Shown here piece by piece: positions 6,422 through 63,832 of a stretch of 64,000 nt of DNA. The notes beneath the pieces were generated by a model. It had not been told where the DNA came from, searched no databases, and was given only the letters and a program-made list of their open reading frames with translations. The stretch is from a virus, in the IMG/VR virus record IMGVR_UViG_3300020190_000008, one strand, 5' to 3'. The position numbers and the translations under genes are program-made. Numbering within the stretch: position 1 is the first letter of the stretch; every line of letters starts with the position of its first letter.

Positions 6422-7798
6422 TTATAAACCTAGTCTTGTTAAGATATCATCATCTTCTTCATCGTCATCGTAGTCATCATCATCGTCATCACCTTCTTTA
6501 TATTTTTTATAGTTAGCTTTTGCTTGTTGTAATAATTCGTTGAATTTTTTCTTAGCTTTTTCATTATCAGATGGACTATCTGAAATAACATTTGCAATTA
6601 CATTTTTTAAAAATTCTTCAGCTGGAATACTATATAACAATTGTTCAAAGAAAGGAATATATTTTTTACCTTCATTATCCAATGTTAATTCATCTGGAAG
6701 TAAGGTTCTTAATTTTCTTACAAGCTCACCACCAACACGGAAATTCATTGGTTCGTTTTGCATTGTATCTGTTTGACCAATAACTTGTGTTGCGATTTCT
6801 GGGTCCATATCTTTCCATTGTGCTCTTGACTGAATCATTGAAAATGATTTGAATAGTTCGTGAAGTAAAATTGGAAATATTAAGCCATTAGCATAATATG
6901 TATCATTTCCATCTCCTTCTTCACCACCTTCATCTTCGTCTTCATCGTCATCATTACTTTCTTGTTTTTTACCTGCAGCACCGGCGGCATTACCACCAAG
7001 AGCTTCAATCAAATCTTCATCTGTAAAATACATAAGGTCATTAGCACCCATAATTTTATTATAAAGTGCGTATAGTCCTGGATCAATCGCGTCTAATCTA
7101 TCCTTATACATTTGGTAAGCAAATTGACCACGTTTTCCTTTACCCATTATAATAGCATTGATAACATTTCTTTTTTCAATTTCCAATTGTTTTTGTTCTT
7201 CTGGTGTTAGTTCGTCGATATCAAAAGAAAAATTTGGAGGTAATGGAAGTTTTTGTTCTTTTTGTGGTTTCATTTTAAAAATACTTGGGTCGATTGCTTG
7301 TTCCCCTAAAAATGTTAACATATTAACAAAATCAAATTCATAAACAACACCACCATCTTTTCTTTTTTTAATTACCAAACCTTTTTCAATTGCTTGTTCC
7401 ATATTATCAGAATAAGGTAACCAACCTTCTTCTTTAGCCGCAATTTCAACCGCCAAATCTCTAAGTTGTTCTCTATATCTTGGTTCAAGTTGCATAGCTT
7501 GTCTAACTGCTTGCATCTGTGCCATTTGTATTGACATTTTAACTTGTGGGTTTGTAATATTTTGTTCTGTACCAAAATATCTTTTTACATAGTCGACAAT
7601 TTCTTTAAATCTTTTACCAGCAATTTTTTCAACATCAGAAGCACCACCCCTAAAAGCTCTATTCTTTGCGTAGATACCTTCTGGGTCCTCAATTCTTTGT
7701 TGTGTTCTAGGGTGCATTCTTTCAGGATAATCACCATAATCAATTGGTGCTTCCTTAATTATTTTTCTTACAAGTCTTTCTAATTCTCTATTTCCCAT
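6422..7798 (-). CDS. hypothetical head-associated protein with leader
   Basis: N-terminal LERLVRKIIKE leader; acidic tracts. Confidence 0.65.
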   Translation of the reverse strand: MGNRELERLVRKIIKEAPIDYGDYPERMHPRTQQRIEDPEGIYAKNRAFRGGASDVEKIAGKRFKEIVDYVKRYFGTEQNITNPQVKMSIQMAQMQAVRQAMQLEPRYREQLRDLAVEIAAKEEGWLPYSDNMEQAIEKGLVIKKRKDGGVVYEFDFVNMLTFLGEQAIDPSIFKMKPQKEQKLPLPPNFSFDIDELTPEEQKQLEIEKRNVINAIIMGKGKRGQFAYQMYKDRLDAIDPGLYALYNKIMGANDLMYFTDEDLIEALGGNAAGAAGKKQESNDDDEDEDEGGEEGDGNDTYYANGLIFPILLHELFKSFSMIQSRAQWKDMDPEIATQVIGQTDTMQNEPMNFRVGGELVRKLRTLLPDELTLDNEGKKYIPFFEQLLYSIPAEEFLKNVIANVISDSPSDNEKAKKKFNELLQQAKANYKKYKEGDDDDDDYDDDEEDDDILTRLGL

Positions 7799-7801
7799 TT
7801 T

Positions 7802-8728
7802 TTAGTTTCTTAAAATTGAAGTTATTGCTACCATAAAATCATTTTTTTGTTCTTCTGCTTTTGGTTGTTCTTCAACACTAGGATTTGGGTCCTTAAATGG
7901 ATTTCCCTTTCTTCTTGTCGGTGTTTTAGTTTTTTCCCTTTCTTTAGTTCTTTCTTTTTCTTTTGTATTTGCTTTTGGTTGTTCTTCAACACCAGGATTC
8001 GGATCCTTGAATGGATTTCCTTTTCTTCTTGTTGGTGTTTTAGTTCCAGGTTTTGTTTTAGTTCGTTCTTTTTCTTTTGTATTTTCTATCATCTCTTTTT
8101 CTTGAAACATAGTATTTTTCTTTGGGTTGTTCAACATAAACTTTTCTGACTTATCAACTTTTTCTTGAATTGTTTTTAACAATTCTCCTTTTGTCATACT
8201 AGGTTCAATATGTTTTTCAATCATATTGAATATTTGTTCTTCCAAATACTTTTCATAATTTTCATCGGTATTTTTTCTTGTTTTTCTTTTAACAGTTTTT
8301 TCTGGATGTTTTTTTTCTGGCATATCTTTGTATTGTTTTTTTGACGTACTATCTGAAAATTCTCTAGCCATTTCACACCATTTTTTCTTTTTAACACCCT
8401 TACTTGTATTACACTTGGCCCAAAAGAATCCTTGTTGTGCTTTTGATTCAAATTTTTCACCTATTTCACGAGTAACAGTAAGACTTCCATCTGGATTTGG
8501 GGTTACTTCACCATCTTTAACATTTAAACCTTCCTTATTTTGTTTCATTTGATTAACCGTTGAAGAATCAACATTTTGGATTTCAAGGGTTTTTCGTGTT
8601 GTTTGGATAGCTTCTTTAGTTTCAAATTTTTCAGCAAGAATTCTTATTTGATTTGGTTTCATTCTTGAAACCGTGGTAAAATGAATACCATTTTCCAAAA
8701 GAATTTCAATGTATTTTTTAGTTTTCAT
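7802..8728 (-). CDS. hypothetical protein with internal duplication
   Basis: EKFESKAQQ motif; duplicated NTKEKERTK..KTPTRRKGNPFKDPNP.VEEQPKA; ATG at 8728 preferred as start. Confidence 0.65.
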   Translation of the reverse strand: MKTKKYIEILLENGIHFTTVSRMKPNQIRILAEKFETKEAIQTTRKTLEIQNVDSSTVNQMKQNKEGLNVKDGEVTPNPDGSLTVTREIGEKFESKAQQGFFWAKCNTSKGVKKKKWCEMAREFSDSTSKKQYKDMPEKKHPEKTVKRKTRKNTDENYEKYLEEQIFNMIEKHIEPSMTKGELLKTIQEKVDKSEKFMLNNPKKNTMFQEKEMIENTKEKERTKTKPGTKTPTRRKGNPFKDPNPGVEEQPKANTKEKERTKEREKTKTPTRRKGNPFKDPNPSVEEQPKAEEQKNDFMVAITSILRN

Positions 8729-9125
8729 AAACAACTTTTTTTTCAAATTGCAACACGAGGTCTCTCTCGTATAATTTATCTTTTACATCCTGTTCTTGGT
8801 CCCCATATTTAAAAACCAATCTTTTAATCAACGAAAAATCAATTTCATCTTCTTTTTCCCAACCAAGGGCAATAACACCATCAATTGAATCTTGAACAGA
8901 AAAAACATCAGAATTTTGTACCAATTCCAATGTAATTTCATTGTGTGTTAACGACCCAACTTTTTTTACGTGTTCAACATCCGGAGGACTTGGATAACCG
9001 TTTGCAGGTCTTGCTTCCCAATTTTCACCCCAAACATCTTCCAAAGAATCACCAAAAATAAATTCATAAATGTTTTCACCCCTATAATTAGGACCCAAAC
9101 CATTTATGTATAATAAGTAACTCAT
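8718..9125 (-). CDS. hypothetical phage protein
   Basis: 135 aa, overlaps both neighbours (translational coupling). Confidence 0.7.
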   Translation of the reverse strand: MSYLLYINGLGPNYRGENIYEFIFGDSLEDVWGENWEARPANGYPSPPDVEHVKKVGSLTHNEITLELVQNSDVFSVQDSIDGVIALGWEKEDEIDFSLIKRLVFKYGDQEQDVKDKLYERDLVLQFEKKVVYEN

Positions 9126-12330: not shown

Positions 12331-14391
12331 ATGGCAATAGAATTTGTAGATGATGGTGATAAGGGTAAAAAGAAAGATGGTGGTACCCCAGTTTTAGATA
12401 ATTTCAGTAAGGATTTGATTAAGTTAGCAGAACAAGGAAAATTAGATCCGGTTATTGGAAGACAAAAAGAAATACTTAGAATAGCACAAGTATTATCCAG
12501 AAGAAAAAAAAATAATCCAATAATCATTGGTGAACCTGGTGCTGGAAAAACAGCAATTGTAGAAGGTTTAGCTATGATGATTCACGCTGGTGAATGTCCA
12601 AAAAATTTAGCCGATAAAAGAATTGTTTCACTGGACATTAATTCAATTGTTGCCGGAACAAAATATCGTGGGCAATTTGAAGAAAGAATGAAGGTTATAA
12701 TTGAAGAATTACAATCAAGCCCAAATATTATAATTTTTATTGATGAAATTCATACAATTGTTGGTGCTGGTAATAGTTCTGGTTCATTGGACGCCTCAAA
12801 CATTTTTAAACCAGCATTATCAAGAGGTGAAATACAATGTATTGGTGCAACAACACTTGATGAATATAGAAAAAATTTTGAAAAAGATGGTGCTTTAGAA
12901 CGAAGATTTCAAAAAATAATCGTTGATCCTTCAACAAAAGAAGAAACTTTTGAAATTTTAAAACAAAGTAAGGAAAAATATGAAGAACACCATAAAGTTA
13001 ATTATACAGATGAAGCTCTTTGGTTGTGTGTAGAATTGGCAGATAGATATATTACAGATAGGGAATTTCCAGATAAAGCTTTTGATATTTTAGATGAGGT
13101 TGGTTCCCGTATGCAAATTGATATAAAACTTCCAGATCATATTGAAAAGTTGAAGCAAGAAGCTGCGGACGTAAAACAAGAAAAAGCTGACGTTATTAAA
13201 AAACAAAAATACGAAATGGCGGCAGAACTTCGTGACCGTGAAAAAAGTATCTTAACAAAACTCGACGAAGAAAAAAAGAAATTTGAAGAAAAATTAAGAA
13301 CTAGCAAACGTGGTATCCCAGAAGACTTGATTTATGAAGTCGTATCAAATATGACAAAAATCCCAGTAAGTAAAATTAATATTGATGAAAAAAATTCACT
13401 TGTTAATTTGGAAGATTCACTTAATGGTTCTGTAATTGGTCAAGATGAAGCTGTTAAAAAAATATCAAAAGCCATTAGAAGAAATAGGGTTGGGATTAAG
13501 GACCCAAATAGACCAATTGGTTCATTCATATTCCTTGGGTCAACCGGTGTTGGTAAAACATTCCTTGCAAAAAAATTAGCAAAAGAAATTTTTGGTAGTG
13601 AAGATAGTTTGATTCGTGTTGATATGTCCGAATATCAAGAAAAACACACCATATCAAGACTTATTGGTTCCCCTCCGGGATATGTTGGTCACGAAGAAGG
13701 TGGACAATTAACAGAACAAGTTAAAAACAAACCATACTCTGTTATTTTATTTGATGAAATCGAAAAGGCAAACAAAGACATTTTTGCAACACTTCTTCAA
13801 ATGTTGGATGACGGTCATATGACAGATGGTTTGGGTAGAAAAATCAACTTCAAAAACTGTTTAATTATTATGACATCAAACATTGGTGTTAAAAAAGTCC
13901 AAGACTTTGGAAGTGGCGTTGGATTCAAAACAAACAATAATAGTGATGCGGTCCAGGAAGAATATAAAAGGGATGTTTTGAAAAAAGAATTAAGTAAGTT
14001 TTTTGCTCCAGAATTTTTAAATAGAATCGATGATGTTGTAATATTCAATTCACTTAAAAAAGAACATATTGATAAGATTGTAAAATTAGAAATTGACAAA
14101 CTTATTGATAGATTATCATCTATGAAATATAGAGTTTCATATGAACAATCTGTAATTGAATTAATTGCAAAAGTTGGTTTTGACGAACAATATGGTGCTA
14201 GACCAATCAAACGCGCCATTCAAGATAAAATAGAAGACCTTATTTCAGAAAAAATATTATTAAATGAAGTTCTGGAAGAAAAAGAATATATGTTATTTGT
14301 TAAAGGAGAAGGTGAAGACCAAACAATAGAAATTGAAGACAGGACAAAACCAGAACCAAAGAAAAGAGGTAGAAAGAAAAAGGAGGATTAA
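12331..14391 (+). CDS. clpC: ClpC-like AAA+ chaperone lacking the Clp N-domain
   Basis: GEPGAGKT and GSTGVGKT Walker A motifs, FIDEIH, UVR-type middle domain (YEMAAELRD); sequence begins directly at NBD1. Confidence 0.9.
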   Translation: MAIEFVDDGDKGKKKDGGTPVLDNFSKDLIKLAEQGKLDPVIGRQKEILRIAQVLSRRKKNNPIIIGEPGAGKTAIVEGLAMMIHAGECPKNLADKRIVSLDINSIVAGTKYRGQFEERMKVIIEELQSSPNIIIFIDEIHTIVGAGNSSGSLDASNIFKPALSRGEIQCIGATTLDEYRKNFEKDGALERRFQKIIVDPSTKEETFEILKQSKEKYEEHHKVNYTDEALWLCVELADRYITDREFPDKAFDILDEVGSRMQIDIKLPDHIEKLKQEAADVKQEKADVIKKQKYEMAAELRDREKSILTKLDEEKKKFEEKLRTSKRGIPEDLIYEVVSNMTKIPVSKINIDEKNSLVNLEDSLNGSVIGQDEAVKKISKAIRRNRVGIKDPNRPIGSFIFLGSTGVGKTFLAKKLAKEIFGSEDSLIRVDMSEYQEKHTISRLIGSPPGYVGHEEGGQLTEQVKNKPYSVILFDEIEKANKDIFATLLQMLDDGHMTDGLGRKINFKNCLIIMTSNIGVKKVQDFGSGVGFKTNNNSDAVQEEYKRDVLKKELSKFFAPEFLNRIDDVVIFNSLKKEHIDKIVKLEIDKLIDRLSSMKYRVSYEQSVIELIAKVGFDEQYGARPIKRAIQDKIEDLISEKILLNEVLEEKEYMLFVKGEGEDQTIEIEDRTKPEPKKRGRKKKED

Positions 14392-14407: not shown

Positions 14408-15193
14408 TTAATGTTTAGTGTAACCTAATTCTTCAATCATTAGTTTACCAACCTTAATACCGTTGTAGGTATCTTCCACAACAACATATTCATTTCTTGT
14501 GTGATAGTTGTAATAACCAATTGATATATTAAAACAAGATAGTCCAAAATTTTGATTTAACGGAAAGATGTCCGTATAAGGGTGTCTGTGGTATTTGGTA
14601 TCGCCTGGAAAGTGTTCTGTGATTAAACGACCCCCAACATTAAAGAAATCTGAATCTCTTTTAAACATTGGTTTATTCATTAAGAATTCTGAAATCATAT
14701 TGTTTTCTGGTGCATCAAATTGAATTACGTACCCAATATTTTTAAAAAACTTGGGGTCAGCATTAAATGATCCCTTACAACCGGTTTCTTCGGCAACAAA
14801 AAAGGCTGCTTTTAGATTTGGTAATTCTTTTAGTAATTCAAGACAAGCATAAACACCACACTTATCATCACCACCAATACCGATTGGTTCTCCTTTATCG
14901 TTATAAGCTTTAAGGGCTAATTTAATTTCTTTTTGAGCGTTTGGTAGTTGTACTTCAACAACATTGATAGAATCGATTGTATGTACCGTATCTGTATGTG
15001 CAACCACACAAGGAAAGTATTTAATATTTTCATCAGTTTGTTTTGTTGCATATATGTTGTAGAAGTTATCAACATAATAGGGGATTTTATTTTCATCCAA
15101 CCATTCTGTTATAAAATCAATCATCAAATCTTCTTGATAAGTTTTGGTTGGTACCGATAGTACTTGTTTTAATAGTTCAAAATTTCTTTCCAT
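14408..15193 (-). CDS. M28/M20-family zinc peptidase
   Basis: AHTDTV, GGDDKCG, EETG, QFD, YHT metal-ligand pattern. Confidence 0.8.
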   Translation of the reverse strand: MERNFELLKQVLSVPTKTYQEDLMIDFITEWLDENKIPYYVDNFYNIYATKQTDENIKYFPCVVAHTDTVHTIDSINVVEVQLPNAQKEIKLALKAYNDKGEPIGIGGDDKCGVYACLELLKELPNLKAAFFVAEETGCKGSFNADPKFFKNIGYVIQFDAPENNMISEFLMNKPMFKRDSDFFNVGGRLITEHFPGDTKYHRHPYTDIFPLNQNFGLSCFNISIGYYNYHTRNEYVVVEDTYNGIKVGKLMIEELGYTKH

Positions 15194-16713: not shown

Positions 16714-16716
16714 ATT

Positions 16717-16767: not shown

Positions 16768-16938
16768 TTACTTAACAACAGCAGTATCTTTTACAACAGT
16801 CGTAGCTTCAGTAGTTGCCTCAACAGTAGCTTCTGGTGTTGCATCTGAAGTTGCGTTTCCAGTTCCTTTTTCACCACAAGCCGTCAAAAGAGAAATTGTC
16901 GTAAAAAAAGCAGCAGAAAGTAAAACTAATTTTTTCAT
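16768..16938 (-). CDS. small lipoprotein (56 aa)
   Basis: hand translation MKKLVLLSAAFFTTISLLTAC-GEKG...; lipobox; T/A/E-rich tail typical of Bacteroidetes. Confidence 0.7.
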   Translation of the reverse strand: MKKLVLLSAAFFTTISLLTACGEKGTGNATSDATPEATVEATTEATTVVKDTAVVK

Positions 16939-18229: not shown

Positions 18230-19309
18230 TTAAAGAATTTTTTTCATCAAATCTTTAATTCTATTTAATTCTTCATTTAATTTTAAACTTTCTTCTTCTT
18301 TTTTTAAATTGACTTTAGGTAGTTCAACTTCTGAAACTTCTTCACCACTACTAAATATTTCCTTAAATTTTTTCATGAAGGCTCTGATTTTTTCCAAATC
18401 AATTTTTATTTCAGCGCCAGTATCATCGGAAACTTTAACTTCAAATTTTTCAGCAATTGTTTTTATTTCACTTCTATTAAATTCCCTTTTACCCAATTCT
18501 TTTTCAAAGTAGTCCAAACATTCATCTAAAGAATTGAATGTTTTATCTTTCAAATCATTTATAAATGTTTCAGCGTCTGAATTTGAGGTTTTATCATCTT
18601 TTATAATTGAATCTTTTTTATATATTACAAGTGATGCTAAAACAATTTTTGAAAAATTGTCTTTAACATTCAAAGAATCTAGTTTTTCTAAAACACCTTC
18701 AATTATAGATTGTTCTTTAAAAGAAAAAGCGGTATAAAATATTTTTTTTATTTTTGGTACAACTTCATTAGATACTTCTTTTGAATCTTGACTTTCACTA
18801 TCATCAGTTGATGAATATTTTTCATCTGGTTTTTTGTTTCTAACACCTACGTGAATATGGTCATAGTGGTCTTTAACATTCCAACCAACTTGATATCTGT
18901 AGGTTCCAACATTAAAATTAATCCACTTACCGTTACCTTTTTGTAGTAATTTATCTGGCATTTTATCTTCTGATATCCACCCACGTTTTACAAATTCTTC
19001 TCTTAGTTTTTTCCAACCTTTATCACCTTTTTCACCACGACAAGGTAAATCAATACCATAAGAATCTTTTGAACCATCCCAGTGGTCTGACCTATTTCCA
19101 GATGCTGTTAATTTATTACTTCTTTTTTGTGAACCAGGGTTAAATCCTAAATCTTTTAACCAAGATGCCATCTGTAGTGCTCTTTCTGCAGAACCGGCCC
19201 AATCACCATTTATTCCACCACCAAGACAAACTTTACCTTGATCAAGACATCCAGGATATTTAGAACCAGTCGCAAAACCATATGTATTTGTTTCTACTAG
19301 TAAATTCAT
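18230..19309 (-). CDS. putative Zn peptidase (M15/LAS-like) with C-terminal EELNRIKDLMKK helix
   Basis: KR....SDH....GID...HYDHIHVG. Confidence 0.55.
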   Translation of the reverse strand: MNLLVETNTYGFATGSKYPGCLDQGKVCLGGGINGDWAGSAERALQMASWLKDLGFNPGSQKRSNKLTASGNRSDHWDGSKDSYGIDLPCRGEKGDKGWKKLREEFVKRGWISEDKMPDKLLQKGNGKWINFNVGTYRYQVGWNVKDHYDHIHVGVRNKKPDEKYSSTDDSESQDSKEVSNEVVPKIKKIFYTAFSFKEQSIIEGVLEKLDSLNVKDNFSKIVLASLVIYKKDSIIKDDKTSNSDAETFINDLKDKTFNSLDECLDYFEKELGKREFNRSEIKTIAEKFEVKVSDDTGAEIKIDLEKIRAFMKKFKEIFSSGEEVSEVELPKVNLKKEEESLKLNEELNRIKDLMKKIL

Positions 19310-19324: not shown

Positions 19325-19792
19325 TCAATGAATTAAAAACCATTCTGGAATATTTCTATTTTTCCAATTTACAAAAGATTTTTTTGCAATCATATAATAA
19401 TTTCTATAAGATTCGATAACAGAATCTACTTTAAATTCGTCTGGCATTGCTTTTGGTGGTTGTGTAAAATCTTTATCTGGAATACTTGGTTTGTTGTCCA
19501 AACACCATTCTATAATATCCTGTGATTTATGTCTTTTACCGTAACGATATGTATATTCCTTACACAATTCTAAACCAAGGTCACATAAATAAAGGTAATT
19601 CGAAAGACTTTCACGGGTCCATATGGCACAAGGGTGATTTTTATGTGATAACTTATAAGGAGCTTCTGAACCAATAACCCAATGAACACCACATAAAAGT
19701 TGAGCTGTTTCTAAAATCATTTTAACAACGTGTTTATCACAATGATACTGTGCACATTTTTTAGTATCAAAATCTAAAAAAAATATATTCAT
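19325..19792 (-). CDS. pyrimidine-dimer DNA glycosylase/DenV-related protein
   Basis: MNIF.LD..A..HCDKHVVKM.LE.AQLL, HKNHPC.IW, YR.YY. Confidence 0.75.
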   Translation of the reverse strand: MNIFFLDFDTKKCAQYHCDKHVVKMILETAQLLCGVHWVIGSEAPYKLSHKNHPCAIWTRESLSNYLYLCDLGLELCKEYTYRYGKRHKSQDIIEWCLDNKPSIPDKDFTQPPKAMPDEFKVDSVIESYRNYYMIAKKSFVNWKNRNIPEWFLIH

Positions 19793-51184: not shown

Positions 51185-52507
51185 TTAATCAGCTTTAGGT
51201 TTTTGTTCAAATGTTGGTGTTATATATTCTTCTGAATATTGTTTATCCCCTGGTAATAAACCAGGTATTTTACCTATCGGCATTCCTGGAAATTCTTTTA
51301 ATATATCTTCAATAGTTTTATCACCCGGTAACTGGATTGGAATACCAGGTATTTTAATAATTTCTGGTAATTTTTCAATAGGTATTTGTTTTAAAATATC
51401 TGGTAATTTATCGATAGGTATTTGTTTTATGATATCTGGATTTTTAGTAATAATATCAATTATTAATTGAGGGTTTTTACTTATAATATCAATTATTAAT
51501 TGAGGATTGTTTGTAATAATGTCAATAATAATCTGTGGATTCTTATTAATAATGTCAATAATAATCTGTGGATTTTTAGTAACATAGTCAATTACTATTC
51601 TTAAAAGTGTTTCAGGAATTTGTAATTTAGCAAAAATACAAAGAATTACTTCTAACATTTTTTGTGGCATTTCTTCAAATCTTTTAATTAAAGCATTAAT
51701 ACAACCACCACCTACTACATTTCCTGTTGTAGACATTACAGTTCCTTTACATTCAAATGGCATATCAAGTTGTACTTTACCAAAACATGCTTGTATTTCT
51801 TTTATATCTGGAAGTTTAACATCACCACCAGGTATTTGACCACCTGGTAATGGAAAATCACTTTTAGAACCATCTGGTTTCCAAGTTCCGTCACAAAAAG
51901 CGTTTCTTAAATTTATATTGGTTGTTGCGTCACCTTTGATACAAGGAGTGGTTCCGTTACAATTTGCCGCAATCCATTTAGCTTGAACATCTTTAAAGTT
52001 CATACCCATATCGGTAATAGCGTTGTAAGGAGTTTTACTTTTACAATTAGTGTCTTTACCACCACCTTGTTGATTACCTTGTTGGTTATTTCCAGAACAA
52101 GGGATATCTTCTTTATTTTGACCATCATATTTTCGACTTATAACTTTTTTACAGTTACAACTATATGATTGAATTATTACTTCACCATCTCCATTGGGTA
52201 CTTTAACAACCATTTTAGATGGTGTATGTAACCAATAATAGGTGTAATTTGTACTTGGGTCATTTACAACAACCGCTTCAAACATTGTAGATCCTTTATA
52301 TCCTATTTTTTCATATAAAAAATTTAAAGCCTTTTGTGGTAATTGTATGTTATTTACTTTTCCACCGTTAGCATTTCTAACACATATTGGGAAATCATAA
52401 AGACCTTCTTTCAATAATCGTGTTGTTGGATTTTTTTTAACTCTATTGTGTAGACCCAAAATTCTTTGTTTTTCAGATTCTTCGATTAATCTTCTATAAT
52501 AACTCAT
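51185..52507 (-). CDS. leader-bearing Cys-rich protein with NPQ(I/L)IIDII repeats
   Basis: EESEKQRILGLH leader; 4-5 tandem 11-aa repeats. Confidence 0.7.
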   Translation of the reverse strand: MSYYRRLIEESEKQRILGLHNRVKKNPTTRLLKEGLYDFPICVRNANGGKVNNIQLPQKALNFLYEKIGYKGSTMFEAVVVNDPSTNYTYYWLHTPSKMVVKVPNGDGEVIIQSYSCNCKKVISRKYDGQNKEDIPCSGNNQQGNQQGGGKDTNCKSKTPYNAITDMGMNFKDVQAKWIAANCNGTTPCIKGDATTNINLRNAFCDGTWKPDGSKSDFPLPGGQIPGGDVKLPDIKEIQACFGKVQLDMPFECKGTVMSTTGNVVGGGCINALIKRFEEMPQKMLEVILCIFAKLQIPETLLRIVIDYVTKNPQIIIDIINKNPQIIIDIITNNPQLIIDIISKNPQLIIDIITKNPDIIKQIPIDKLPDILKQIPIEKLPEIIKIPGIPIQLPGDKTIEDILKEFPGMPIGKIPGLLPGDKQYSEEYITPTFEQKPKAD

Positions 52508-52548: not shown

Positions 52549-53082
52549 TTAGTTTAAATCGGTTTTTGGGCTTCCTTTATCAATTCTTATTTGAAATTTA
52601 ATGTCTGTGACTTTTAATTCGGCTGCATAATCTGTCATAGCTCTATAAACATTCATTGTTAAGCCAAAAAGTTTATCAATGATTGTTTCTTTTGTTATTA
52701 ATTCTTTACCCATATTAAGCATTATTCTAATTTTTTCTTGATAAGATTCTAGTTTTCTGTGTAAAATTTTACCTAGTCTAATTAATTCTTTTTCTGTAAA
52801 ATCTTTGAAAACAATATCCATTGCCGAATTAATTTCTGAAATTAAATCAATTGCTTCATATAAATTTTCTTTTAAATCAACATATTCAATATTTTCAGAT
52901 TTTAACATATATCCGATACTTCTAAGAACTTGTGATAAATCTGTAAAAGTATCAATCAATACTTTCATAGAAGTACCGCCGTGATGAGCCATAACATTAT
53001 AGTCGTCATAACCGGCAGCTTCTTCTGTAATTCTTTTTATTAATCTTTGGTATTGGTCTTCCGTTACTAATATTTTTGTCAT
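52549..53082 (-). CDS. leader-bearing helical protein
   Basis: ILVTEDQYQRLIKRITE leader. Confidence 0.7.
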   Translation of the reverse strand: MTKILVTEDQYQRLIKRITEEAAGYDDYNVMAHHGGTSMKVLIDTFTDLSQVLRSIGYMLKSENIEYVDLKENLYEAIDLISEINSAMDIVFKDFTEKELIRLGKILHRKLESYQEKIRIMLNMGKELITKETIIDKLFGLTMNVYRAMTDYAAELKVTDIKFQIRIDKGSPKTDLN

Positions 53083-53212: not shown

Positions 53213-53770
53213 TTAAGATTCCAATTCTTCAAAGGTTTGTTTACAAAAATTAATTAAATACTGTATATAATCATTTTCCATCCAATCTACTATTGCCTGA
53301 AAACTTTCAAATTTGGTCGGTAATTTTATTTGTTTATAGTACTGACCAGTTATTTCTTCATCGATTATTTCACCGTCATCATCTGTAAAATTGTAATATT
53401 CAGTATCAATTGGTAAAAAACATTTACCATCCCAATAAGGTGTTGCATAACCATCAAGACTATTTGTTGTTTCATTATCTGTTACTTTGAAATATACTGA
53501 ACCTACAAAATCGTCCATATCTAAACTAATAAAATATTCTCCTGTAATGTACCGTTTTTTGACATCACTTTCATAAATTAATTTAGAACAAATTTCATTT
53601 AAATCATCACAACTAAATTCTGGTAATTTTGAATTTCTATAAATTTTATCAAGTTGAGGTATTGATAATCTGTATCTATCGATTGTATTAATAAAACCAA
53701 TTTCATCAAATGATTGTGAAAGTTGACTTTTCAGTCTGGATCCTTGTTTTTCTGTTATTAGATATTTCAT
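53213..53770 (-). CDS. leader-bearing hypothetical protein
   Basis: MKYLITEKQ; GYATPYWDG. Confidence 0.7.
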   Translation of the reverse strand: MKYLITEKQGSRLKSQLSQSFDEIGFINTIDRYRLSIPQLDKIYRNSKLPEFSCDDLNEICSKLIYESDVKKRYITGEYFISLDMDDFVGSVYFKVTDNETTNSLDGYATPYWDGKCFLPIDTEYYNFTDDDGEIIDEEITGQYYKQIKLPTKFESFQAIVDWMENDYIQYLINFCKQTFEELES

Positions 53771-54163: not shown

Positions 54164-54718
54164 TTAAATAAATTTATTTTCCCTTATCCATATAACAGCA
54201 ATAAATTTTTTTCCTTCAATAACCGGTAATCCTGCGTGTAAACTATCATAATCTAAAGACCCATCTTCATTTAAATTATCCCAAACAATAAGTTTACCAA
54301 TTTTTGGTTTTATTTTTATTCCTAAATTTATAAATTCAGTTTCACCACCTTCAAATGAATCGTTTAAATAAAGAAGACAAGTTTTTGTTCTTTGTCCTCC
54401 AGCAGATATGGTATTTTCAAAATATTCTTCAGTTGGATGGAAAAAATCGTGATGTTCTTTATATTCACCACCAACATCATATGAAACAATATGTAATGAT
54501 TCCATATTTTCAATTGGTAAATTAACCAATTCAGAAATTTTCTGTCTATAATTTTTTACAATATCGTAATCATCATCGTATAACCAACAACTATTTGCTG
54601 TTCTATATCCATCTATCTTTTCACCTAAAACTTCTGCTTCAGATAAATTTTTGTAGGATATTTTAATAAGTCGGTCACAAATAATATCTGAAATAAAATT
54701 ATCATATTCTTTAACCAT
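54164..54718 (-). CDS. prolyl 4-hydroxylase-like 2OG-Fe(II) oxygenase
   Basis: RT...W, E.L....Y..GGEY..H.D, R..T.LLYLN...GGET.F, HAG.PV..G.K....W.RE. Confidence 0.88.
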   Translation of the reverse strand: MVKEYDNFISDIICDRLIKISYKNLSEAEVLGEKIDGYRTANSCWLYDDDYDIVKNYRQKISELVNLPIENMESLHIVSYDVGGEYKEHHDFFHPTEEYFENTISAGGQRTKTCLLYLNDSFEGGETEFINLGIKIKPKIGKLIVWDNLNEDGSLDYDSLHAGLPVIEGKKFIAVIWIRENKFI

Positions 54719-54760: not shown

Positions 54761-55516
54761 TTAAAATTTTATTTTAGTTAAATCAACTACTGGTAAGTAA
54801 TCATCAACTTTTAATTCAATCGGTTCTTTTTCACCTTGCCATCTTTTATAAAAACTTACATCTCTAGTGCTAAATTCGTCAGTTTCAAAATCTTCATCTG
54901 AAAATCCTTCAAACTTATAGTTTATCATATTTTCTGGTAAATGTATGTAAATATCATCCATAAACTTTTCTAACTTTCTATTAAATTCGTAACCAAAATC
55001 GTTTTTAAACTTATCGTCCACATAACTTTGTAGATACAATCTACTAATTTCAAGGTTTGGTAATAGAAAATCAAATTCTTTATAATCATTTGGTGGTGTT
55101 ACATTATAAAAATCATAAAATTTATTTAAATCAATCTTGAAACTAACATTACCAAACAATCCATCTTTTATTCTGATATTAATATTAATAATAAATGGGT
55201 ATTCATCTTTAAGATGTCTTAATAAGATTTTTTTTCCAGCATCAATGCGTTTGTTTTCAGATTCAGAAATTAACGGATTTTTTTTTTCACTTATTGATTC
55301 TTTAATATCAATAACACCAATTATTTCTTTTTTTTTCGGAAGAGATTTTTTGTAGTCTTGCCATTCTTGTTCATCCTTAAACTCTAACATATGAGATTGG
55401 TAAACTGGGTCTTCACCTTTACCTGGTGAATACTTGATTGCAACACCTTTTTTAATTGGTCGTTCTTCAGTTATTACCCTTGTTAATTGTTCTTCTGTTA
55501 GAATATAGTTTTTCAT
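54761..55516 (-). CDS. leader-bearing hypothetical protein
   Basis: MKNYILTEEQLTRVITE leader. Confidence 0.7.
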   Translation of the reverse strand: MKNYILTEEQLTRVITEERPIKKGVAIKYSPGKGEDPVYQSHMLEFKDEQEWQDYKKSLPKKKEIIGVIDIKESISEKKNPLISESENKRIDAGKKILLRHLKDEYPFIININIRIKDGLFGNVSFKIDLNKFYDFYNVTPPNDYKEFDFLLPNLEISRLYLQSYVDDKFKNDFGYEFNRKLEKFMDDIYIHLPENMINYKFEGFSDEDFETDEFSTRDVSFYKRWQGEKEPIELKVDDYLPVVDLTKIKF

Positions 55517-55578: not shown

Positions 55579-55872
55579 CTAAACCGCTTTATTATTACTT
55601 TGACACTTTAAGTCTAAAAGTTTTTTATCGCCATCTGTCAAAACTGGTGATTCTGTACCACCACCTTCGCTTTGAACTTTTTTGGTACTACAACTGTAAT
55701 AAAATTTTTTTGTTGATGTTGGAGATGTTTTAAATACGATATCATCTTCATCTTCATTTGTGATATGTATTGAAGTATCTTCTTTTATCAATGTTTTATA
55801 TTGTAACATTCTATTTTCAAGTAACATATTTACTTTTTGCATATGATTAATTTTTGTAAAACTTCTATTCAT
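55579..55872 (-). CDS. leader-bearing small protein
   Basis: MNRS..KI.H.Q..N..LE leader shared with 61313..61852. Confidence 0.65.
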   Translation of the reverse strand: MNRSFTKINHMQKVNMLLENRMLQYKTLIKEDTSIHITNEDEDDIVFKTSPTSTKKFYYSCSTKKVQSEGGGTESPVLTDGDKKLLDLKCQSNNKAV

Positions 55873-56702: not shown

Positions 56703-57077
56703 TTATTGTTGTTTCTTTCTTTCCCAAGCTTGATGAAGTCTAATTTCATATCTTTTTTTAAGATATGGCATTAATTCCCAATACATTGATGCAACTTTAC
56801 CAAGACTTTCATCATCATATATCAAACCATATTCCGGGTCTTCAACCGTATCAATCTCTTCATCTTTTCTATCAACCAAAAAATTATGAAGCAAATCACC
56901 AAGAACATAATCACAAAAATTATCAAATTTATCTGTCGGTGGTGTTGCGATAATAAAATTGGTTAATTCTTCATCAATCCATTTTAAATCAGCAATTGTA
57001 ACCCTCCTTTTTAAAAATGGTGGAAGGCTGGCAAATAGTCCTTTGAGATGTTCCGATTCTTTTATTAACTTTTTCAT
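56703..57077 (-). CDS. RR-family protein, paralog of 57074..57454
   Basis: LPPFLKRRVT..DL...LH.F...K.EEIDT..D.EYG...YW.L. Confidence 0.7.
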   Translation of the reverse strand: MKKLIKESEHLKGLFASLPPFLKRRVTIADLKWIDEELTNFIIATPPTDKFDNFCDYVLGDLLHNFLVDRKDEEIDTVEDPEYGLIYDDESLGKVASMYWELMPYLKKRYEIRLHQAWERKKQQ

Positions 57078-57454
57078 TTCTTAAATATGTCTTTCCAAAT
57101 ATCGTGTAATTTATCGGTATATAAAGATTTAATGTTTGCAAATAACGGCCAATATAAGTCAAATATTTTTTCTTTACTATCTTCAATCCATACTTCACCC
57201 CATTCTTCGTCATATTCGGTATCAATTTCATCACTTTTATATTCCGCAACAAATTCGTGTAATGTCTGATAAATAATATCATCAACAAAAAAATCAAAAT
57301 GGTCAGCATAATAAGGGTATGAGCAGTGTTTAATATTTTTTAATACCAATCTTTCAATAGTATTCAAATCTTCATCTGTCAATCGTCTTTTTAAAGCTGG
57401 AGACAAATCAACAAGTAGTCTTTCGTATTGAGATTCTGTGATAATAATTTTCAT
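57074..57454 (-). CDS. RR-family protein with leader
   Basis: MKIIITESQY leader; LSPALKRRLT. Confidence 0.7.
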   Translation of the reverse strand: MKIIITESQYERLLVDLSPALKRRLTDEDLNTIERLVLKNIKHCSYPYYADHFDFFVDDIIYQTLHEFVAEYKSDEIDTEYDEEWGEVWIEDSKEKIFDLYWPLFANIKSLYTDKLHDIWKDIFKK

Positions 57455-57466: not shown

Positions 57467-58072
57467 TTAAAATAAACCACCAGGTTTACGGCTATCATAT
57501 ATGTCCCTTATATCATTTCTTAATCCATATATAATGTGATTTCTAAATTCGGTATATAAATCATAATTTTCTCCACGAATATCACGATTTATTAAATTAT
57601 CCGAAACATACATTAATGTTACTTTTGCAAGATATTCAACATAACGTTGAAAGAAATCAAATTTTGTGGGGTCAACCCTTTTTAAATGTCTATTAAGTTC
57701 TTCTTCAACAGCTGGGAGTCTTCTAACAAAATCAATCTTTGATTCATTTAATGAACTTCCACACTTACGTCTGAATACATCAATAATTTGCTCGGTATAA
57801 TGTTCTCTAGCATAATCATCTATCAATTCAAGATCCATAGTTGCTCCCCCCTTATCTGTGTTGTCGTGAAAAAAATCCCAGTTTCGGTCAATAAGTTCTT
57901 CAATTGATCTATCAATAAGATTTGTTGTAAAACTATCTTCATCATAAACCTTACACCACCAAGCAAATTTAAGATTGGCTTTATAACCTTCAATCTGATC
58001 TTCAACAATTTCAATGAATTGCCCAAGTAATCTAAGTAAATGTATTTGATTTTCAGTTATAAGGATTTTCAT
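57467..58072 (-). CDS. two-domain RR-family protein with leader
   Basis: MKILITENQ; internal LNE followed by DFVRR. Confidence 0.7.
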   Translation of the reverse strand: MKILITENQIHLLRLLGQFIEIVEDQIEGYKANLKFAWWCKVYDEDSFTTNLIDRSIEELIDRNWDFFHDNTDKGGATMDLELIDDYAREHYTEQIIDVFRRKCGSSLNESKIDFVRRLPAVEEELNRHLKRVDPTKFDFFQRYVEYLAKVTLMYVSDNLINRDIRGENYDLYTEFRNHIIYGLRNDIRDIYDSRKPGGLF

Positions 58073-58422
58073 AGATTCATATATTTTAAATATTCTGGGT
58101 CCAATCTTCTTAGTATTATATTAAGAACACTTTTTGGTAAATCTTTAATTGGAATTAATATATTTGATTCAAAGTCACCTGGAACATTCCTATCTTCATC
58201 ATAATGTATTTCTTCACCATGAACAAAGGGATATCTAGAAAAAAGTTGAAATAGGACATTTTGCGTATCAAAATGAATTTCAGTAATGTAAACAACATCT
58301 TCTTCTTTAAATAATTCAATTCCCAATTGAGCAACCAACTTTTTTGGGACTTCATAATATAAAAAATCAGTTTCGGTTGGTGTATATTCTTCTTTAAGGA
58401 TTTTTCTAATTAGGGATTTCAT
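58069..58422 (-). CDS. leader-bearing hypothetical protein
   Basis: MKSLIRKILKE. Confidence 0.65.
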   Translation of the reverse strand: MKSLIRKILKEEYTPTETDFLYYEVPKKLVAQLGIELFKEEDVVYITEIHFDTQNVLFQLFSRYPFVHGEEIHYDEDRNVPGDFESNILIPIKDLPKSVLNIILRRLDPEYLKYMNL

Positions 58423-58765: not shown

Positions 58766-59260
58766 TTAAAAATCGGTATCATCATATGATATTGACCTTG
58801 GGTCAATATCACTAGCATCAATACCATTACTTTCAAAAGCTTTTAAGACCTTTTTAGCATCCGTTCTTGTTTTTGGTAAAGATGGATAATCACCACTTAA
58901 ATAAAACTCCATTTCACCTAGATATTTGTTTATCATAAATGTTTTTTTATTTCCAGTTTCAAGGTCTTCTGTTTTCATCGCATAACTCATAGAATAACTA
59001 GGTTCCCCTTCAACACTATTAATTCTTACGTTTAAAGTTTGTTCTTCATCTTTATATTTTACAACCATTGTAACATTACCTGTTTCTTGGTTTAAACCAA
59101 ATTCTTTTCCGTGTTCACGAAATCTATTACCTAATTTTGAATAACCTCTTTGATTTGCATTATCTGCGGCTCTTTCATATGTGGACCTATCAAGTTCCAT
59201 AATTGTTCTTTTAACAATTCTTGCAAGATCTGATTCTGTAAGTCTTATAATTTTTTTCAT
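58766..59260 (-). CDS. leader-bearing hypothetical protein
   Basis: MKKIIRLTESDLARIVKRTIME. Confidence 0.75.
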   Translation of the reverse strand: MKKIIRLTESDLARIVKRTIMELDRSTYERAADNANQRGYSKLGNRFREHGKEFGLNQETGNVTMVVKYKDEEQTLNVRINSVEGEPSYSMSYAMKTEDLETGNKKTFMINKYLGEMEFYLSGDYPSLPKTRTDAKKVLKAFESNGIDASDIDPRSISYDDTDF

Positions 59261-59264: not shown

Positions 59265-59663
59265 TTAATATTTCTCCATTTGAGTTCTACAAAACGCCTT
59301 ACCATTTTTTGACATAAAAATAAATCTTTCAATGTGAGGAGCATTTAGTCCAATTGAAACGTCGTCCATCAAAGGAATAATCCGTGGCATTTCACCGGGT
59401 TTAAGTGGAATTGTTAGTTCAGGACTAGCACCACCTTCAAGGAAGTCAATACATTCAGGTAAATTGGGATTTTCGAATGACTTATAATCTATATTTCCTG
59501 ACGGAGTTTGTCCTGACTTGACAACATCAGATGGAGGTATTGATACTGTTTTTGGTATTGTTATTGGTTCTTTTGGTATTGATATTGGTTTTGGTTGTTC
59601 AGTTAATGGTTTAACTTCCCCCATTGTTGATTCCAATAATTGTTTAAATCTATTTAGTTCCAT
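59265..59663 (-). CDS. leader-bearing hypothetical protein
   Basis: RFKQLLESTMGEVKPLTE. Confidence 0.7.
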   Translation of the reverse strand: MELNRFKQLLESTMGEVKPLTEQPKPISIPKEPITIPKTVSIPPSDVVKSGQTPSGNIDYKSFENPNLPECIDFLEGGASPELTIPLKPGEMPRIIPLMDDVSIGLNAPHIERFIFMSKNGKAFCRTQMEKY

Positions 59664-60156: not shown

Positions 60157-60753
60157 TTACATAAACATTCCGTCAATTCCGTGACGTTTAAATAATTTAC
60201 TTCTTCTCTTACAAGAAGAACGTCTTTTACCTCCACTTTTAGAAACTATAGCAACAATAATAATTATAAGTAAAATCGCTCCAATCGCGATAAGAACACT
60301 TGGTCCTAATGAAACACCTGCGATTGTTATTAAGGCCGTTTCAACTTGTTCATTCATTGGTTGAGTCTCATCTTTAACTTGGACTGTTGTTGTTTGGGTT
60401 GTTGACGTATCTCCTTTAACTTGGTCTTTAGCTTTAAAAATTGCGTTTTTTAATGAAAATAAAGTTTGTTTAAGATTACCTCTATTTTCAGGATTATTGG
60501 CCCAATCCCAAACCCTTGCAATGATACCATTATTAGTCTCATCATCTGTTTGTGGAATACAAGTGGGTTCGTTTGAATCGACAACATCGTCAAGTTTAAC
60601 TACGTTATAGTTAATACCTGTTGTCTCCATTTCTTTTTTAGCATCCATTGCAACCCTAACAGAGTTAACAACTTCAGATTCCTCAGTAATCACTTGTTTA
60701 TACAAATCCATAATTTGTTTTTTCTCATCCTCAGTCACTAAAAATCTTTTCAT
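60157..60753 (-). CDS. leader-bearing protein with C-terminal TM helix
   Basis: FLVTEDEKKQIMDLY leader; TM helix followed by a basic tail. Confidence 0.7.
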   Translation of the reverse strand: MKRFLVTEDEKKQIMDLYKQVITEESEVVNSVRVAMDAKKEMETTGINYNVVKLDDVVDSNEPTCIPQTDDETNNGIIARVWDWANNPENRGNLKQTLFSLKNAIFKAKDQVKGDTSTTQTTTVQVKDETQPMNEQVETALITIAGVSLGPSVLIAIGAILLIIIIVAIVSKSGGKRRSSCKRRSKLFKRHGIDGMFM

Positions 60754-61312: not shown

Positions 61313-61852
61313 TTAAGCAAATGAAACTTTACTTTTAATTGATTCAAGACCCTTACCAGTAGCCTCAACCCAATTAGGATATTTTTTTACATACTGGGTA
61401 TTTTCTTTTCCCTTAAAATAGTATTTACCATTTTCCAATTTATAATCATACGCCTTATCAAATGTTGTATTTACTTTTCCTTTTTCAATTTTTTTCATAC
61501 TATCAAGAAGTTTTGTTGAATCATCACCTTTTGCAGTAATCTCACCTTCAGCATCATCGTTACAATACCCATCACCTTTTTTACAAACCCAAACTGGAAT
61601 TTGTTTTTCTTCCATATACTTTTTTAAAGTATCATTAAAATCTTTATCTTGCCAGTTTCCAGTTTGTGCTGCGGATAAATTTATATTATAGTATGAATTT
61701 AAAAATTGTGCTTTCTTTTTGGTGAATTGTGCTTTTTGACTACCAGCCGCTTCTGGGGTTAGAGGTTCCCCAATTTTTTCAAGTATTAGTTTATTTTCTA
61801 ATCTTTTATTAGCTTCTTGTATGTGTCTAATTTTTGATTGACTTCTATTCAT
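61313..61852 (-). CDS. leader-bearing hypothetical protein
   Basis: MNRSQSKIRHIQEANKRLE. Confidence 0.7.
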   Translation of the reverse strand: MNRSQSKIRHIQEANKRLENKLILEKIGEPLTPEAAGSQKAQFTKKKAQFLNSYYNINLSAAQTGNWQDKDFNDTLKKYMEEKQIPVWVCKKGDGYCNDDAEGEITAKGDDSTKLLDSMKKIEKGKVNTTFDKAYDYKLENGKYYFKGKENTQYVKKYPNWVEATGKGLESIKSKVSFA

Positions 61853-61892: not shown

Positions 61893-62381
61893 TTACTTAC
61901 TTCCTTTTTTTAGATTATCTTCTTTCCATAGGGGTTGAAGGTTTTTATAATGACATAGTCCAATAACCTCATCTTCGGTATTGGCAAGGGATAGTGGTTT
62001 AATATGGTCAATATGCCAAAGACCATAATTATCCCAGGACATACCTGGTTGAAATAAAGATTCAAAATGTGTTTTTACAACATTCCACTCTTCCCCCAAT
62101 ATCATATATGTTTTTGTTTTTTTGGAATACCCTCTACGTTTGAATGATTTTCTAACTGACTGTCTTATTAGTTGTTTGAAATTGGTAATGGGACACTGAC
62201 GTTCTTTTTTTCGTTTTCTTAAAACATCATACTCCCTACACTTCTTATCATATTCCGGATCTAACCTTTGAAGTTTCTTTCTTTTATAACGTTCCTTATT
62301 TTCACAGGTCTTACAAGTATTTCTATTTCTATATTCAGATTGGTCTTTTTGTAAATTACAGACATTACATATTTTTGACAT
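61893..62381 (-). CDS. HNH endonuclease with N-terminal Zn-ribbon
   Basis: CxxC..CxxC; WHIDHIKP....HY.NLQPLW..DN..K. Confidence 0.85.
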   Translation of the reverse strand: MSKICNVCNLQKDQSEYRNRNTCKTCENKERYKRKKLQRLDPEYDKKCREYDVLRKRKKERQCPITNFKQLIRQSVRKSFKRRGYSKKTKTYMILGEEWNVVKTHFESLFQPGMSWDNYGLWHIDHIKPLSLANTEDEVIGLCHYKNLQPLWKEDNLKKGSK

Positions 62382-62546: not shown

Positions 62547-62930
62547 TTAATCGCATTTTTTTTGGTCGGAACATTCATGTTGTTGTCTCGGTTTATCAAC
62601 AACTTTAGGAACACATTTTTTATTTACACATTTACAATAGTAATATTTTGAATCGACAATTCTACCGGCCATATCTTTATCGGGGTAATCATCAGCCACA
62701 GCATAACCTAAAGTACCATCTTTGAACCATTTATAATCTAGTTTTTCACCATGTTCATTTGTGTGAGCTTTTCTAACTAATATATAATTACTTCCGTTTT
62801 TATTACTAGTTACTTTACCTCCATCCGCAGACCTAACACAAATAGGGAAATCATTTATGTCTTCATTTATCAAAGGTTTAACATTCCCCATTTGTGATTC
62901 TAATAATTGTTTAAATCTATATTTTTCCAT
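62547..62930 (-). CDS. leader-bearing Cys-rich protein
   Basis: RFKQLLESQMGNVKPLINE followed by DFPICVR. Confidence 0.7.
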   Translation of the reverse strand: MEKYRFKQLLESQMGNVKPLINEDINDFPICVRSADGGKVTSNKNGSNYILVRKAHTNEHGEKLDYKWFKDGTLGYAVADDYPDKDMAGRIVDSKYYYCKCVNKKCVPKVVDKPRQQHECSDQKKCD

Positions 62931-62959
62931 AATAATTTTATTTAATAATAAATACCCAG

Positions 62960-63029
62960 ATTTTCTAAAAAATTTTTCCAGAAATTTTTTTACGAATATT
63001 AGGATTATTTTAAAATGGGGGTCGTGTTT
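62960..63029. repeat. about 70-bp intergenic repeat, copy 3
   Basis: same architecture as copy 1. Confidence 0.85.
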
Positions 63030-63037
63030 GTGGGAAA

Positions 63038-63832
63038 CTATTTAGGTATTAATCCATTACTTTGGAAAGATTCAACAGTAACTAATGGAGATTTATTACT
63101 AACGGTAATTTTATCATTGAGTGGGCAAGATGTTTCGTTACACTCGAATGCTCCTAGATAGAAAAATCTTTCCCCTCCGACATTTTCAGCTCCCCTACTA
63201 GCCAAAATAATATTCCTATCTTTTCCATTTATATCCTTGAAATTCATATTAACTTGGTTTTCTTTTGTGTTAAAAGAAATACTTTTTGGGTTTGATTTAA
63301 ACGGTTCATATTCTTTAAATTTAACATAAGTTTGATAAAGGATTGCCTGTTCATTATTTCCCGTTGTAACAACATTTCTTAAATTGAAGGTTTCTTGGGT
63401 AAATTGTGAAACCGTTTCAGTACCATCTTGTTTTGTATGTAAAACAAAATTTGATGTATCATTTAAATCATTTCCATTTGACCTACAAACAAAACAGTTT
63501 GTACCATCTTTAATGTCTGTTATTTTTAATTTCTTAGCATAATCAGATTTGTCAACAAAACAATAAATTGCACTTAAATTCCCAAGATTTAATTTGGTTT
63601 TTATTTGATATATTTTAATAGGTTGTGTTAAACCACTTAAATTTATAATGTTGTTCACAACATTACCATCAAACAAATCATTGGTGTTTGTTTTTATTTC
63701 ATCTGGTAAGTTGTTAAATGGTGGAATAGAATAAATCGTATTTTCTTCTTCAGTTATTAAGGGTTTAACATTCCCCATTGTTGACTCAATTAATTGATAA
63801 AATCTTTTATTATATTCATTAATTGTTCTCAT
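63038..63832 (-). CDS. leader-bearing hypothetical protein
   Basis: RFYQLIESTMGNVKPLITE. Confidence 0.7.
   Translation of the reverse strand: MRTINEYNKRFYQLIESTMGNVKPLITEEENTIYSIPPFNNLPDEIKTNTNDLFDGNVVNNIINLSGLTQPIKIYQIKTKLNLGNLSAIYCFVDKSDYAKKLKITDIKDGTNCFVCRSNGNDLNDTSNFVLHTKQDGTETVSQFTQETFNLRNVVTTGNNEQAILYQTYVKFKEYEPFKSNPKSISFNTKENQVNMNFKDINGKDRNIILASRGAENVGGERFFYLGAFECNETSCPLNDKITVSNKSPLVTVESFQSNGLIPK

Follow-up and report, generated by a model that had tools for sequence, protein, structure and literature searches.

Portable peptide tags on unrelated proteins of an uncultured jumbo phage as candidate capsid-targeting propeptides

Why do some 33-36 proteins with unrelated bodies, encoded in one fragment of viral DNA, have a few classes of N-terminal peptide in common? 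The question is raised by the IMG/VR virus record IMGVR_UViG_3300020190_000008, of which a stretch of 64,000 nucleotides (nt) was analysed (hereinafter, the window, to which coordinates refer). The window makes up half of a viral contig of 127,688 bp, which is only 44% complete according to CheckV and therefore derives from a jumbo phage of roughly 290 kb. A first-pass annotation, made from the letters alone, had noticed the recurrent N-termini, here called tags, and had read them as leaders that mark diverse cargo for packaging in the phage head. Roughly one in four genes of this fragment is tagged. On balance, it appears probable from sequence comparison that the tags serve as capsid-targeting propeptides comparable to the capsid-targeting sequence (CTS) of T4, greatly expanded and diversified into multiple classes: because the tags stop exactly at the cutting motif of the head protease, [ILV]-x-Glu, the proteins that carry them would most likely be loaded into the capsid and clipped.

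Shared N-termini and the edge of their conservation

All N-termini quoted in the first-pass annotation are found in the sequence at the starts given there. When the N-terminal 30-mers from 159 open reading frames (ORFs) are aligned locally, all versus all, 67 pairs score at least 35, compared to 13 for shuffled N-termini and 17/8001 pairs for internal 30-mers used as a control; clustering of the N-termini yields one cluster of about 25 proteins plus small ones. The bodies that follow are unrelated by BLAST in most of these proteins, as had been claimed, the exceptions being three pairs of paralogues (28554/32298, 56703/57074 and 33904/34853). The anticipated positional enrichment is also present: [ILV]xE with Glu at residues 6-10 occurs in 30/138 proteins versus 13.9 +/- 3.4 in shuffled ones (2000 shuffles, maximum 26), and for [ILV][ST]E in the same place, 14 cases are observed against 1.7 expected. 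By itself, [ILV]xE carries little information, with a background of 1.7% per position; what counts is its fixed place at the edge of conservation.

This edge was examined for two classes across non-redundant bodies. In the class A alignment, positions 1-12 are fixed by the search pattern and carry no weight, and positions 13-40 are free. Among 160 class A bodies, the third residue upstream of the candidate cut (P3) is I, V or L in 157/160, the next one (P2) holds 1.43 bits, and Glu22 (P1) is present in 145/160, after which conservation drops below 1 bit; in 14 of the 15 exceptions, the helix is longer and reaches [ILM]-x-E four residues further on. Among 104 class D bodies, conservation is 3.2-4.3 bits per position over residues 1-21, up to Ile21, P2 has 1.8 bits and P1 is Glu in 103/104, with mostly less than 1 bit beyond. 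The two tags are unrelated, one being helical and the other containing proline, and both stop at a fixed hydrophobic residue, a free one and a fixed Glu, which is the T4 rule; this boundary is the strongest evidence for the predicted cleavage. The short class has I-[TS]-E at residues 5-7, followed by a conserved S/N-Q and by Leu at position 13, and a cut after this Glu would yield a propeptide of 7 residues, comparable in size to the T4 CTS. The earlier statement that [ILV]-x-E immediately precedes the body is supported for classes A and D and does not extend to class C, which has no consistent terminal site. The classes differ in strength, with the propeptide reading strongest for A, D and the short class, and weaker for B, C and E.

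The presumed reader and cutter of the tags is a prohead protease of the T4 gp21 type (236..952, minus strand; phrog_207 head maturation protease, E 7e-43; ATATTTATA at 966-974), which the first-pass annotation had identified correctly and which is found in 10/10 complete tag-bearing genomes. Together with the portal (2446..4227) and the large terminase (4570..6342), it forms a T4-type head module; just beyond the window start, a very acidic scaffold of 545 amino acids (aa) adjoins a gp23-like major capsid protein (MCP). When the N-terminus of the latter is aligned to T4 gp23, T4 E65/A66, which we take to be the gp23 cleavage point (a slash marks the cut), falls on E60/A61 (FLTE/AEIGG versus LINE/ATSEG). 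Given that the two sites align, [IL]-x-E/A very probably still is the substrate of this phage's protease. According to the T4 record, gp23 is cleaved by gp21, an enzyme that takes off N-terminal propeptides by cutting after Glu (PMC5694885). The MCP propeptide also holds LKVIKE/D, the same ending as in class A. Furthermore, a lysine-rich protein of 370 aa (pI 9.7), encoded beside the MCP gene just beyond the window start (L119:5129-6241, plus strand), has an N-terminal helix-type tag that resembles the MCP site (..NVLKE/ATGDS) and the full class A motif at its C-terminus. This protein is a good candidate for a DNA-binding internal head protein.

The tagged genes also share a promoter-like element with the structural genes. 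The 9-mer ATATTTATA occurs 15 times in the window (966-974, 2436-2444, 4256-4264, 6356-6364 and 11 more) versus 4.4 expected. For the protease, portal, terminase, scaffold, fibre and baseplate genes, it sits 11-25 nt upstream of the start codon, a distance that implies very short 5' leaders. In a slightly relaxed form, it precedes 20/36 tagged, 12/18 structural and 2/36 enzyme genes (Fisher p=5e-6), and most of the remaining tagged genes are preceded on the same strand by a gene that is tagged or has the promoter. By this association with structural genes, ATATTTATA is a candidate late promoter. No gp55-like late sigma factor was detected by profile in the 44% of the genome in hand, where the candidate at -14858..-14106 (extended coordinates) gave no match.

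Two class A proteins were modelled by AlphaFold with orthologue alignments. In the model of the 22566..23003 product, a low-confidence helix (residues 9-22) is followed by a hinge (21-26) with a predicted local distance difference test (pLDDT) score below 50 and a body at 75-87; in that of the 58766..59260 product, the tag helix (9-21) has a pLDDT of about 56-63, with a break at 18-22, and the body scores 90 or more. In both models (2/2), the tag helix is of modest confidence, the pLDDT drops below 50 where the tag ends and the body is predicted with confidence, so that the tag is predicted to be structurally detached from the body. A Foldseek search of both predicted bodies against the PDB gave no match at E<=0.001.

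Two other readings of the tag itself were rejected. A signal peptide is incompatible with the lack of a hydrophobic core: the tags are charged and amphipathic and contain neither such a core nor a lipobox, as expected of Sec, Tat or lipoprotein signals, and true lipoprotein-type N-termini sit on other genes (e.g., 16768..16938 and 46018..47199). A ribbon-helix-helix domain was discarded since the tagged proteins have no second helix in common.

Distribution of the tags and shuffling of modules

A six-frame scan with the class A profile detects the full motif six times, including the C-terminal copy in the 370-aa protein. Scanning relatives with the leader profile, as the first-pass annotation had suggested, proved productive: among 8,000 candidates scored, taken from a collection of 5.8 billion proteins, 2,343 match at E<=10. 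All these proteins are unnamed and none has a Pfam domain; many carry two or three copies of the motif, with the extra ones located between unrelated modules. The term 'leader' is therefore too narrow, given the C-terminal and internal copies. A DNA pattern for the first 12 residues matches at least 118 viral contigs of 5-412 kb, in which the motif is N-terminal in 143/151 ORF cases; complete genomes have 11-17 class A copies each. The short class and class C are present together in the same loci, class C is found in 12 related loci, class E in two relatives from other loci, and class D has at least 235 database relatives. Tagged genes often stand in tandem clusters. The tag belongs to no Pfam or PHROG family, tblastn against 50,697 phage records gave no match, and a full-text literature search for the motif strings returned no relevant paper. 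The idea of a similar motif in crAss-like phages was dropped; the variant-bearing contigs that were tested match a T4-type protease, five of them strongly and one weakly.

Comparison of the matching proteins reveals module shuffling with breakpoints at the tag. P0059 and P0078 share 97.6% identity as far as an internal tag and are unrelated from there on, and the second module of P0078, after the internal tag, is the body of the 22175..22537 protein. P0058 and P0061 follow the same pattern, and the stand-alone tagged protein P0084 equals the inner modules of P0056. Within the genome analysed here, the tag copies differ by synonymous and six-fold codon-family changes while the peptide is kept, which indicates that the peptide is what is selected. 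In L093 and 9 other related loci, the short MKIIITESQ tag is found on a protein of about 499 aa that by eye resembles, we assume, a DHH-family phosphoesterase; if this identity holds, there is an enzyme among the tagged cargo.

Tagged genes of the window and their neighbours

The tagged genes listed below are on the minus strand unless marked (+), and slashes denote candidate sites. Full class A tags are encoded at 22175..22537 (MKKVIKLTE/RDLTRLIKRIVKE/S..., with a 94-aa body; profile score 40 bits, promoter at 22549-22557), 22566..23003 (MKKRIRLTE/TELISLIKRILKE/E..., with an alpha/beta body; assigned by sequence and the class A profile), 43832..44383 (+) (MKKIKLTE/SELVALIEKVIKE/N..., with the late-type motif 22 nt upstream) and 58766..59260 (MKKIIRLTE/SDLARIVKRTIME/L..., with a beta-rich body and the true start at 59260; 44 bits). 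Helix-only forms are seen in an acidic 458-aa protein encoded beside the terminase (6422..7798, MGNRELERLVRKIIKE/APIDY; weak, 9.8 bits) and in the products of 43145..43753 (MLDNIIKRVINE/E...; 9.9 bits) and 58069..58422 (MKSLIRKILKE/E...; 7.7 bits). The short class comprises 37989..38606 (+) (MKIIISE/SQY...), whose family includes 62 non-redundant relatives in related loci; 52549..53082, where the short tag is extended by a helix (MTKILVTE/DQYQRLIKRITEE/AAG; N-terminus clustering and [ILV]xE count); 57074..57454 (MKIIITE/SQY; promoter at 57459-57467), with a body paralogous to 56703..57077; and, by the [ILV]xE count, 53213..53770 (MKYLITE/KQ), 54761..55516 (MKNYILTE/EQLTRVITEE/R) and 57467..58072 (MKILITE/NQ).

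The class B proteins are large: 493 aa with one transmembrane (TM)-like stretch (28554..30035, ..EELVRIREMMGFSGYNKKLLLE/F), 733 aa with a glycine-zipper or TM-like core (30087..32288, ..LELRRIQELMGVKKIINE/F; hydropathy 2.45) and 529 aa (32298..33887, ..EEILRIREMMGFSSYNKRFLTE/G; promoter at 33892-33900), the first being a paralogue of the last. Such TM-like or glycine-zipper stretches would suit ejection proteins, and other roles as well. An ESM Atlas look-up of one class B protein gave no usable match. Class C consists of 41037..41906 (MYRKRFIITE/SEKKHIKNLYG) and 50345..51172 (..LLSESEKRRILNLH), both assigned by N-terminus clustering, 51185..52507 (..LIEESEKQRILGLH; promoter at 52522-52530) and 60157..60753 (MKRFLVTE/DEKKQIMDLY). 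Class D includes 59265..59663 (MELNRFKQLLESTMGEVKPLTE/Q; promoter at 59678-59686), 62547..62930 (MEKYRFKQLLESQMGNVKPLINE/D; class D alignments) and 63038..63832 (..RFYQLIESTMGNVKPLITE/E; promoter at 63848-63856), and class E, again by clustering, 55579..55872 (MNRSFTKINHMQKVNMLLE/N) and 61313..61852 (MNRSQSKIRHIQEANKRLENKLILE/K). The class F N-terminus (MNNKSLLLEKILLNM..) is found in a protein with a thrombospondin-type calcium repeat (33904..34851) and in its weak paralogue (34853..35872); it has no match in other related loci and probably represents ordinary paralogy rather than a portable tag. The member at 37637, listed in the first-pass annotation, turned out to be weak, as did those at 49055, 57077 and 60883. 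Pfam and PHROGs searches with about 45 proteins gave no match for any tagged body.

Two further proteins, encoded in the window, have tag-like stretches at the C-terminus. The late protein encoded at 26109..28529 (806 aa) ends in a weak class A-like copy (..NLKLTESTLTKILTNIKRKGY; 3 bits); it contains PSPP repeats, about 12 PSP repeats near the N-terminus and several G/S/Q/N-rich linkers, and has no family match. The 359-aa protein encoded at 18230..19309 ends, as previously noted, in a helix resembling class B (..LNEELNRIKDLMKKIL). In its N-terminal part, an H..D / HxH pattern recalls zinc peptidoglycan peptidases; there is no match in Pfam or PHROGs, and this protein could be a virion-borne or lytic cell-wall enzyme.

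The host-like metabolic genes, which had been described as devoid of leaders, are confirmed and untagged (IMPDH/GMP reductase, 4HBT, FKBP, the 2-oxoglutarate (2OG)-Fe(II) oxygenase and GT2). The G+C content is about 30%, and the nearest cultured relatives by MCP are Flavobacterium phage immuto and Microcystis phage Mel-JY01 (about 41% MCP identity). Several genes, in particular 14408..15193, 19325..19792, 21487..21987 and 61893..62381, are preceded at about 12 nt by a TAnnTTTG box, presumably typical of Bacteroidota, and the presence of these boxes suggests a Bacteroidota host. Two of the genes with this host-type promoter, both on the minus strand, encode a weakly matched M20/M28-type peptidase (14408-15193) and a denV-like pyrimidine-dimer DNA glycosylase (19325-19792); a DUF4314 protein is encoded at 37641-37955 (minus strand). 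The genome is otherwise dense, with two intervals lacking credible ORFs (16270-18230 and 20040-21115). Sequences resembling tRNA T-arms occur near 20.3-20.7 kb; ARAGORN predicts a single tRNA in the window, Arg-TCT (23100-23174).

Weighing of the readings and comparison with known systems

If the tags are capsid-targeting propeptides, the tagged proteins would be made late, together with the head proteins, as their common promoter suggests. The tag would then dock the protein to the assembling, very acidic scaffolding core, in the form of a short strand and a basic amphipathic helix (class A), a 23-residue peptide (class D) or the 7-13-residue MKIIITESQ type (short class). After shell closure, the gp21-type protease would cut after the Glu of [ILV]-x-E at the junction of tag and body, a specificity backed by the conserved MCP site, with a possible second cut in class A after h-T-E at residue 9. 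The freed bodies would remain inside the head and pass into the host together with the DNA; fusions with internal tags may be cut into modules in a polyprotein-like manner, and the common tag-coding DNA may double as a recombination junction at which cargo modules are shuffled. Every computational test that was run agreed with the capsid tagging and cleavage put forward in the first-pass annotation, and packaging, cleavage and injection themselves are what we infer from these tests; 'protease activation' of the cargo is pure conjecture. A more far-reaching proposal, which we advance tentatively and with more doubt than conviction, is that of an 'injectome': in a clade of Bacteroidota phages of about 300 kb, each genome would encode dozens of proteins destined for loading into the head, release by the protease and delivery with the DNA, some of them as natural polyproteins, with the tag DNA serving as the recombination junction for cargo swaps.

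Several observations weigh against the propeptide reading. The proteome is rich in K, E and I, which makes [ILV]xE frequent, and the conserved Glu could serve as a helix cap or in partner binding instead. The residue after the candidate cut is mostly Q, E, D or S, unlike the Ala of the MCP site; in the short class, two to six positions after the Glu are conserved, and in one orthologue family, conservation is as high directly after the tag as within it, so that the comparison of tag and body is uninformative. Class C lacks a regular terminal site, and one of its members (60157..60753) counts against soluble cargo because of a strong C-terminal membrane anchor (residues 153-171, hydropathy 3.38); this product could be a membrane protein, involved in, e.g., lysis or exclusion, rather than head cargo. 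The promoter is called late by association alone. The co-occurrence of protease and tags is confounded by common descent, and a Clp unfoldase co-occurs with the tags equally well. Finally, the class A profile detects no motif in T4, immuto, Mel-JY01 or RM378, and the tag is absent from cultured relatives.

It is rather unlikely, in our assessment, that the tag is an uncut docking peptide for another clade-specific hub, either a Clp/Hsp100 unfoldase, for which it would be a recognition or degradation signal, or an anchor on the virion surface or tail comparable to tail-spike N-termini. A two-ring AAA+ unfoldase of the ClpA/C type (AAA, AAA_lid_9, AAA_2 and ClpB_D2-small, with no Clp_N domain) is indeed encoded at 12331..14391 (+); it is present in 10/10 near-complete tag-bearing genomes and absent from the tag-less immuto, Mel-JY01 and RM378. 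The tag works at either end of proteins or inside them, which would suit such a hub, as would the large size of the class B proteins and the extracellular-type calcium repeat in a class F protein. Nevertheless, such a hub gives no reason for two unrelated classes of tag to stop exactly at [ILV]-x-Glu with P2 left free. In addition, the 484-kb uncultured record LR756508 encodes the unfoldase and has almost no class A tag, the unfoldase gene lacks a late-type promoter, and most tagged proteins are small and globular, not fibres. The Clp-type unfoldase is a possible alternative or additional reader of the tags. In two relatives, the unfoldase gene is apparently split by an insertion after approximately residue 71.

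The shuffling of modules with breakpoints at the tag, the frequent tandem clusters of tagged genes and the general abundance of MKK-type starts in this AT-rich genome are the features that would be expected if the tags were a by-product of recombination, with conserved gene-start DNA acting as a portable junction, similar to the promoter/stem-loop cassettes of T4-type phages, and the peptide having no common biochemical role. This explanation seems improbable given that the copies vary synonymously while the peptide stays, that the upstream DNA is unconserved except for the 9-nt promoter motif, that the peptide positions are near-invariant over 100-160 independent bodies and that the motif is retained in fusions and at C-termini, where no gene start is needed. 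We give even less credence to the notion that the tags are recognition sequences for a modifying enzyme, following the logic of leaders in ribosomally synthesised and post-translationally modified peptides, with a nearby peptidase or 2OG-Fe(II) oxygenase as the enzyme. The gene for the oxygenase (54164..54718) lies inside the densest tag cluster, with the FKBP isomerase nearby, but it has no late-type promoter, and the bodies, at 100-700 aa, are folded proteins rather than short core peptides. The most frequent neighbouring enzyme family, whose protein by eye presumably resembles a DNA methyltransferase, is found in 13/118 loci at most; because no family accompanies the tagged genes beyond that, a dedicated modifying enzyme is unlikely.

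If the tags are capsid-targeting propeptides, a peptide signature recognisable from sequence alone would list the proteins that a jumbo phage carries in its head and injects, and in metagenomes it would list thousands of candidate injected proteins for host takeover and anti-defence. Injected proteins act before any phage gene expression and hence would be prime candidates for these functions. The CTS principle, applied in T4 to three proteins, would then extend to dozens of cargos, with tags that are interchangeable or internal and with fusions resembling polyproteins, and the tags could provide short portable signals for loading foreign proteins into large capsids. Should this reading fail, there remains an undescribed, very abundant modular peptide family, present in thousands of proteins with no Pfam or PHROG entry, that needs a reader; the bodies tested have no known fold or family.

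Among the known systems, T4 is the closest in function. Mullaney and Black reportedly described, in 1996, the T4 CTS of IPI, IPII, IPIII and Alt and its removal by gp21. The tags resemble this CTS in being short N-terminal peptides with a hydrophobic-x-Glu ending on otherwise unrelated, fast-evolving proteins. Further points in common are the gp21-type protease, the scaffolding core and the gp23-type MCP with its matching site, and judging from the promoter association, expression may be late here too; the short class, with 7-13 residues, is of T4 CTS size. In T4, the CTS is a propeptide of 10-20 residues at the N-termini of the internal proteins and Alt; it attaches to the core of the prohead and is taken off by gp21 (PMC7411985, PMC3012670). 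Cleavage of Alt occurs at both termini, and a propeptide often contains more than one site (PMC5694885). In contrast to T4, with one tag class on about four genes, several classes are found here on some 36 genes in 128 kb; the class A tag has 22 residues, including an amphipathic helix, and two candidate sites, and tags also occur at C-termini and between the modules of fusions. In sequence, the tags are not similar to the T4 CTS, and the class A profile finds nothing in the T4 genome; the resemblance thus appears to be functional and analogous, not homologous.

In the hyperplastic regions of T4-type phages, modular shuffling is said, by Arbiol et al. in 2010, to be mediated by promoter/stem-loop (PeSL) cassettes. 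As in those cassettes, a short conserved element at the gene start marks the junctions of shuffled accessory genes. Unlike the PeSL, which are non-coding and linked to early promoters, the element described here is a translated peptide under selection that is associated with a late-type promoter.

The phages phiKZ, 201phi2-1 and SPN3US, which are likewise jumbo phages, have many head-internal proteins (PMC5694885, PMC7411985, PMC10052503); SPN3US heads contain about 50 proteins, several of which have long propeptides cut at A-x-E (PMC7411985). In these phiKZ-type giants, S80 proteases cleave at A/S/G-x-E, that is, after Glu as proposed here, and propeptides similarly hold multiple sites; paralogous ejection proteins have identical N-terminal 15-mers, and C-terminal propeptides exist as well (PMC5694885, PMC7411985, PMC10052503). 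However, phiKZ-type propeptides are about 110-130 residues long, belong mostly to paralogous families and have a small residue at P3, whereas the tags of the phage described here consist of 7-28 residues, are portable between unrelated bodies and have I, L or V at P3, as in T4.

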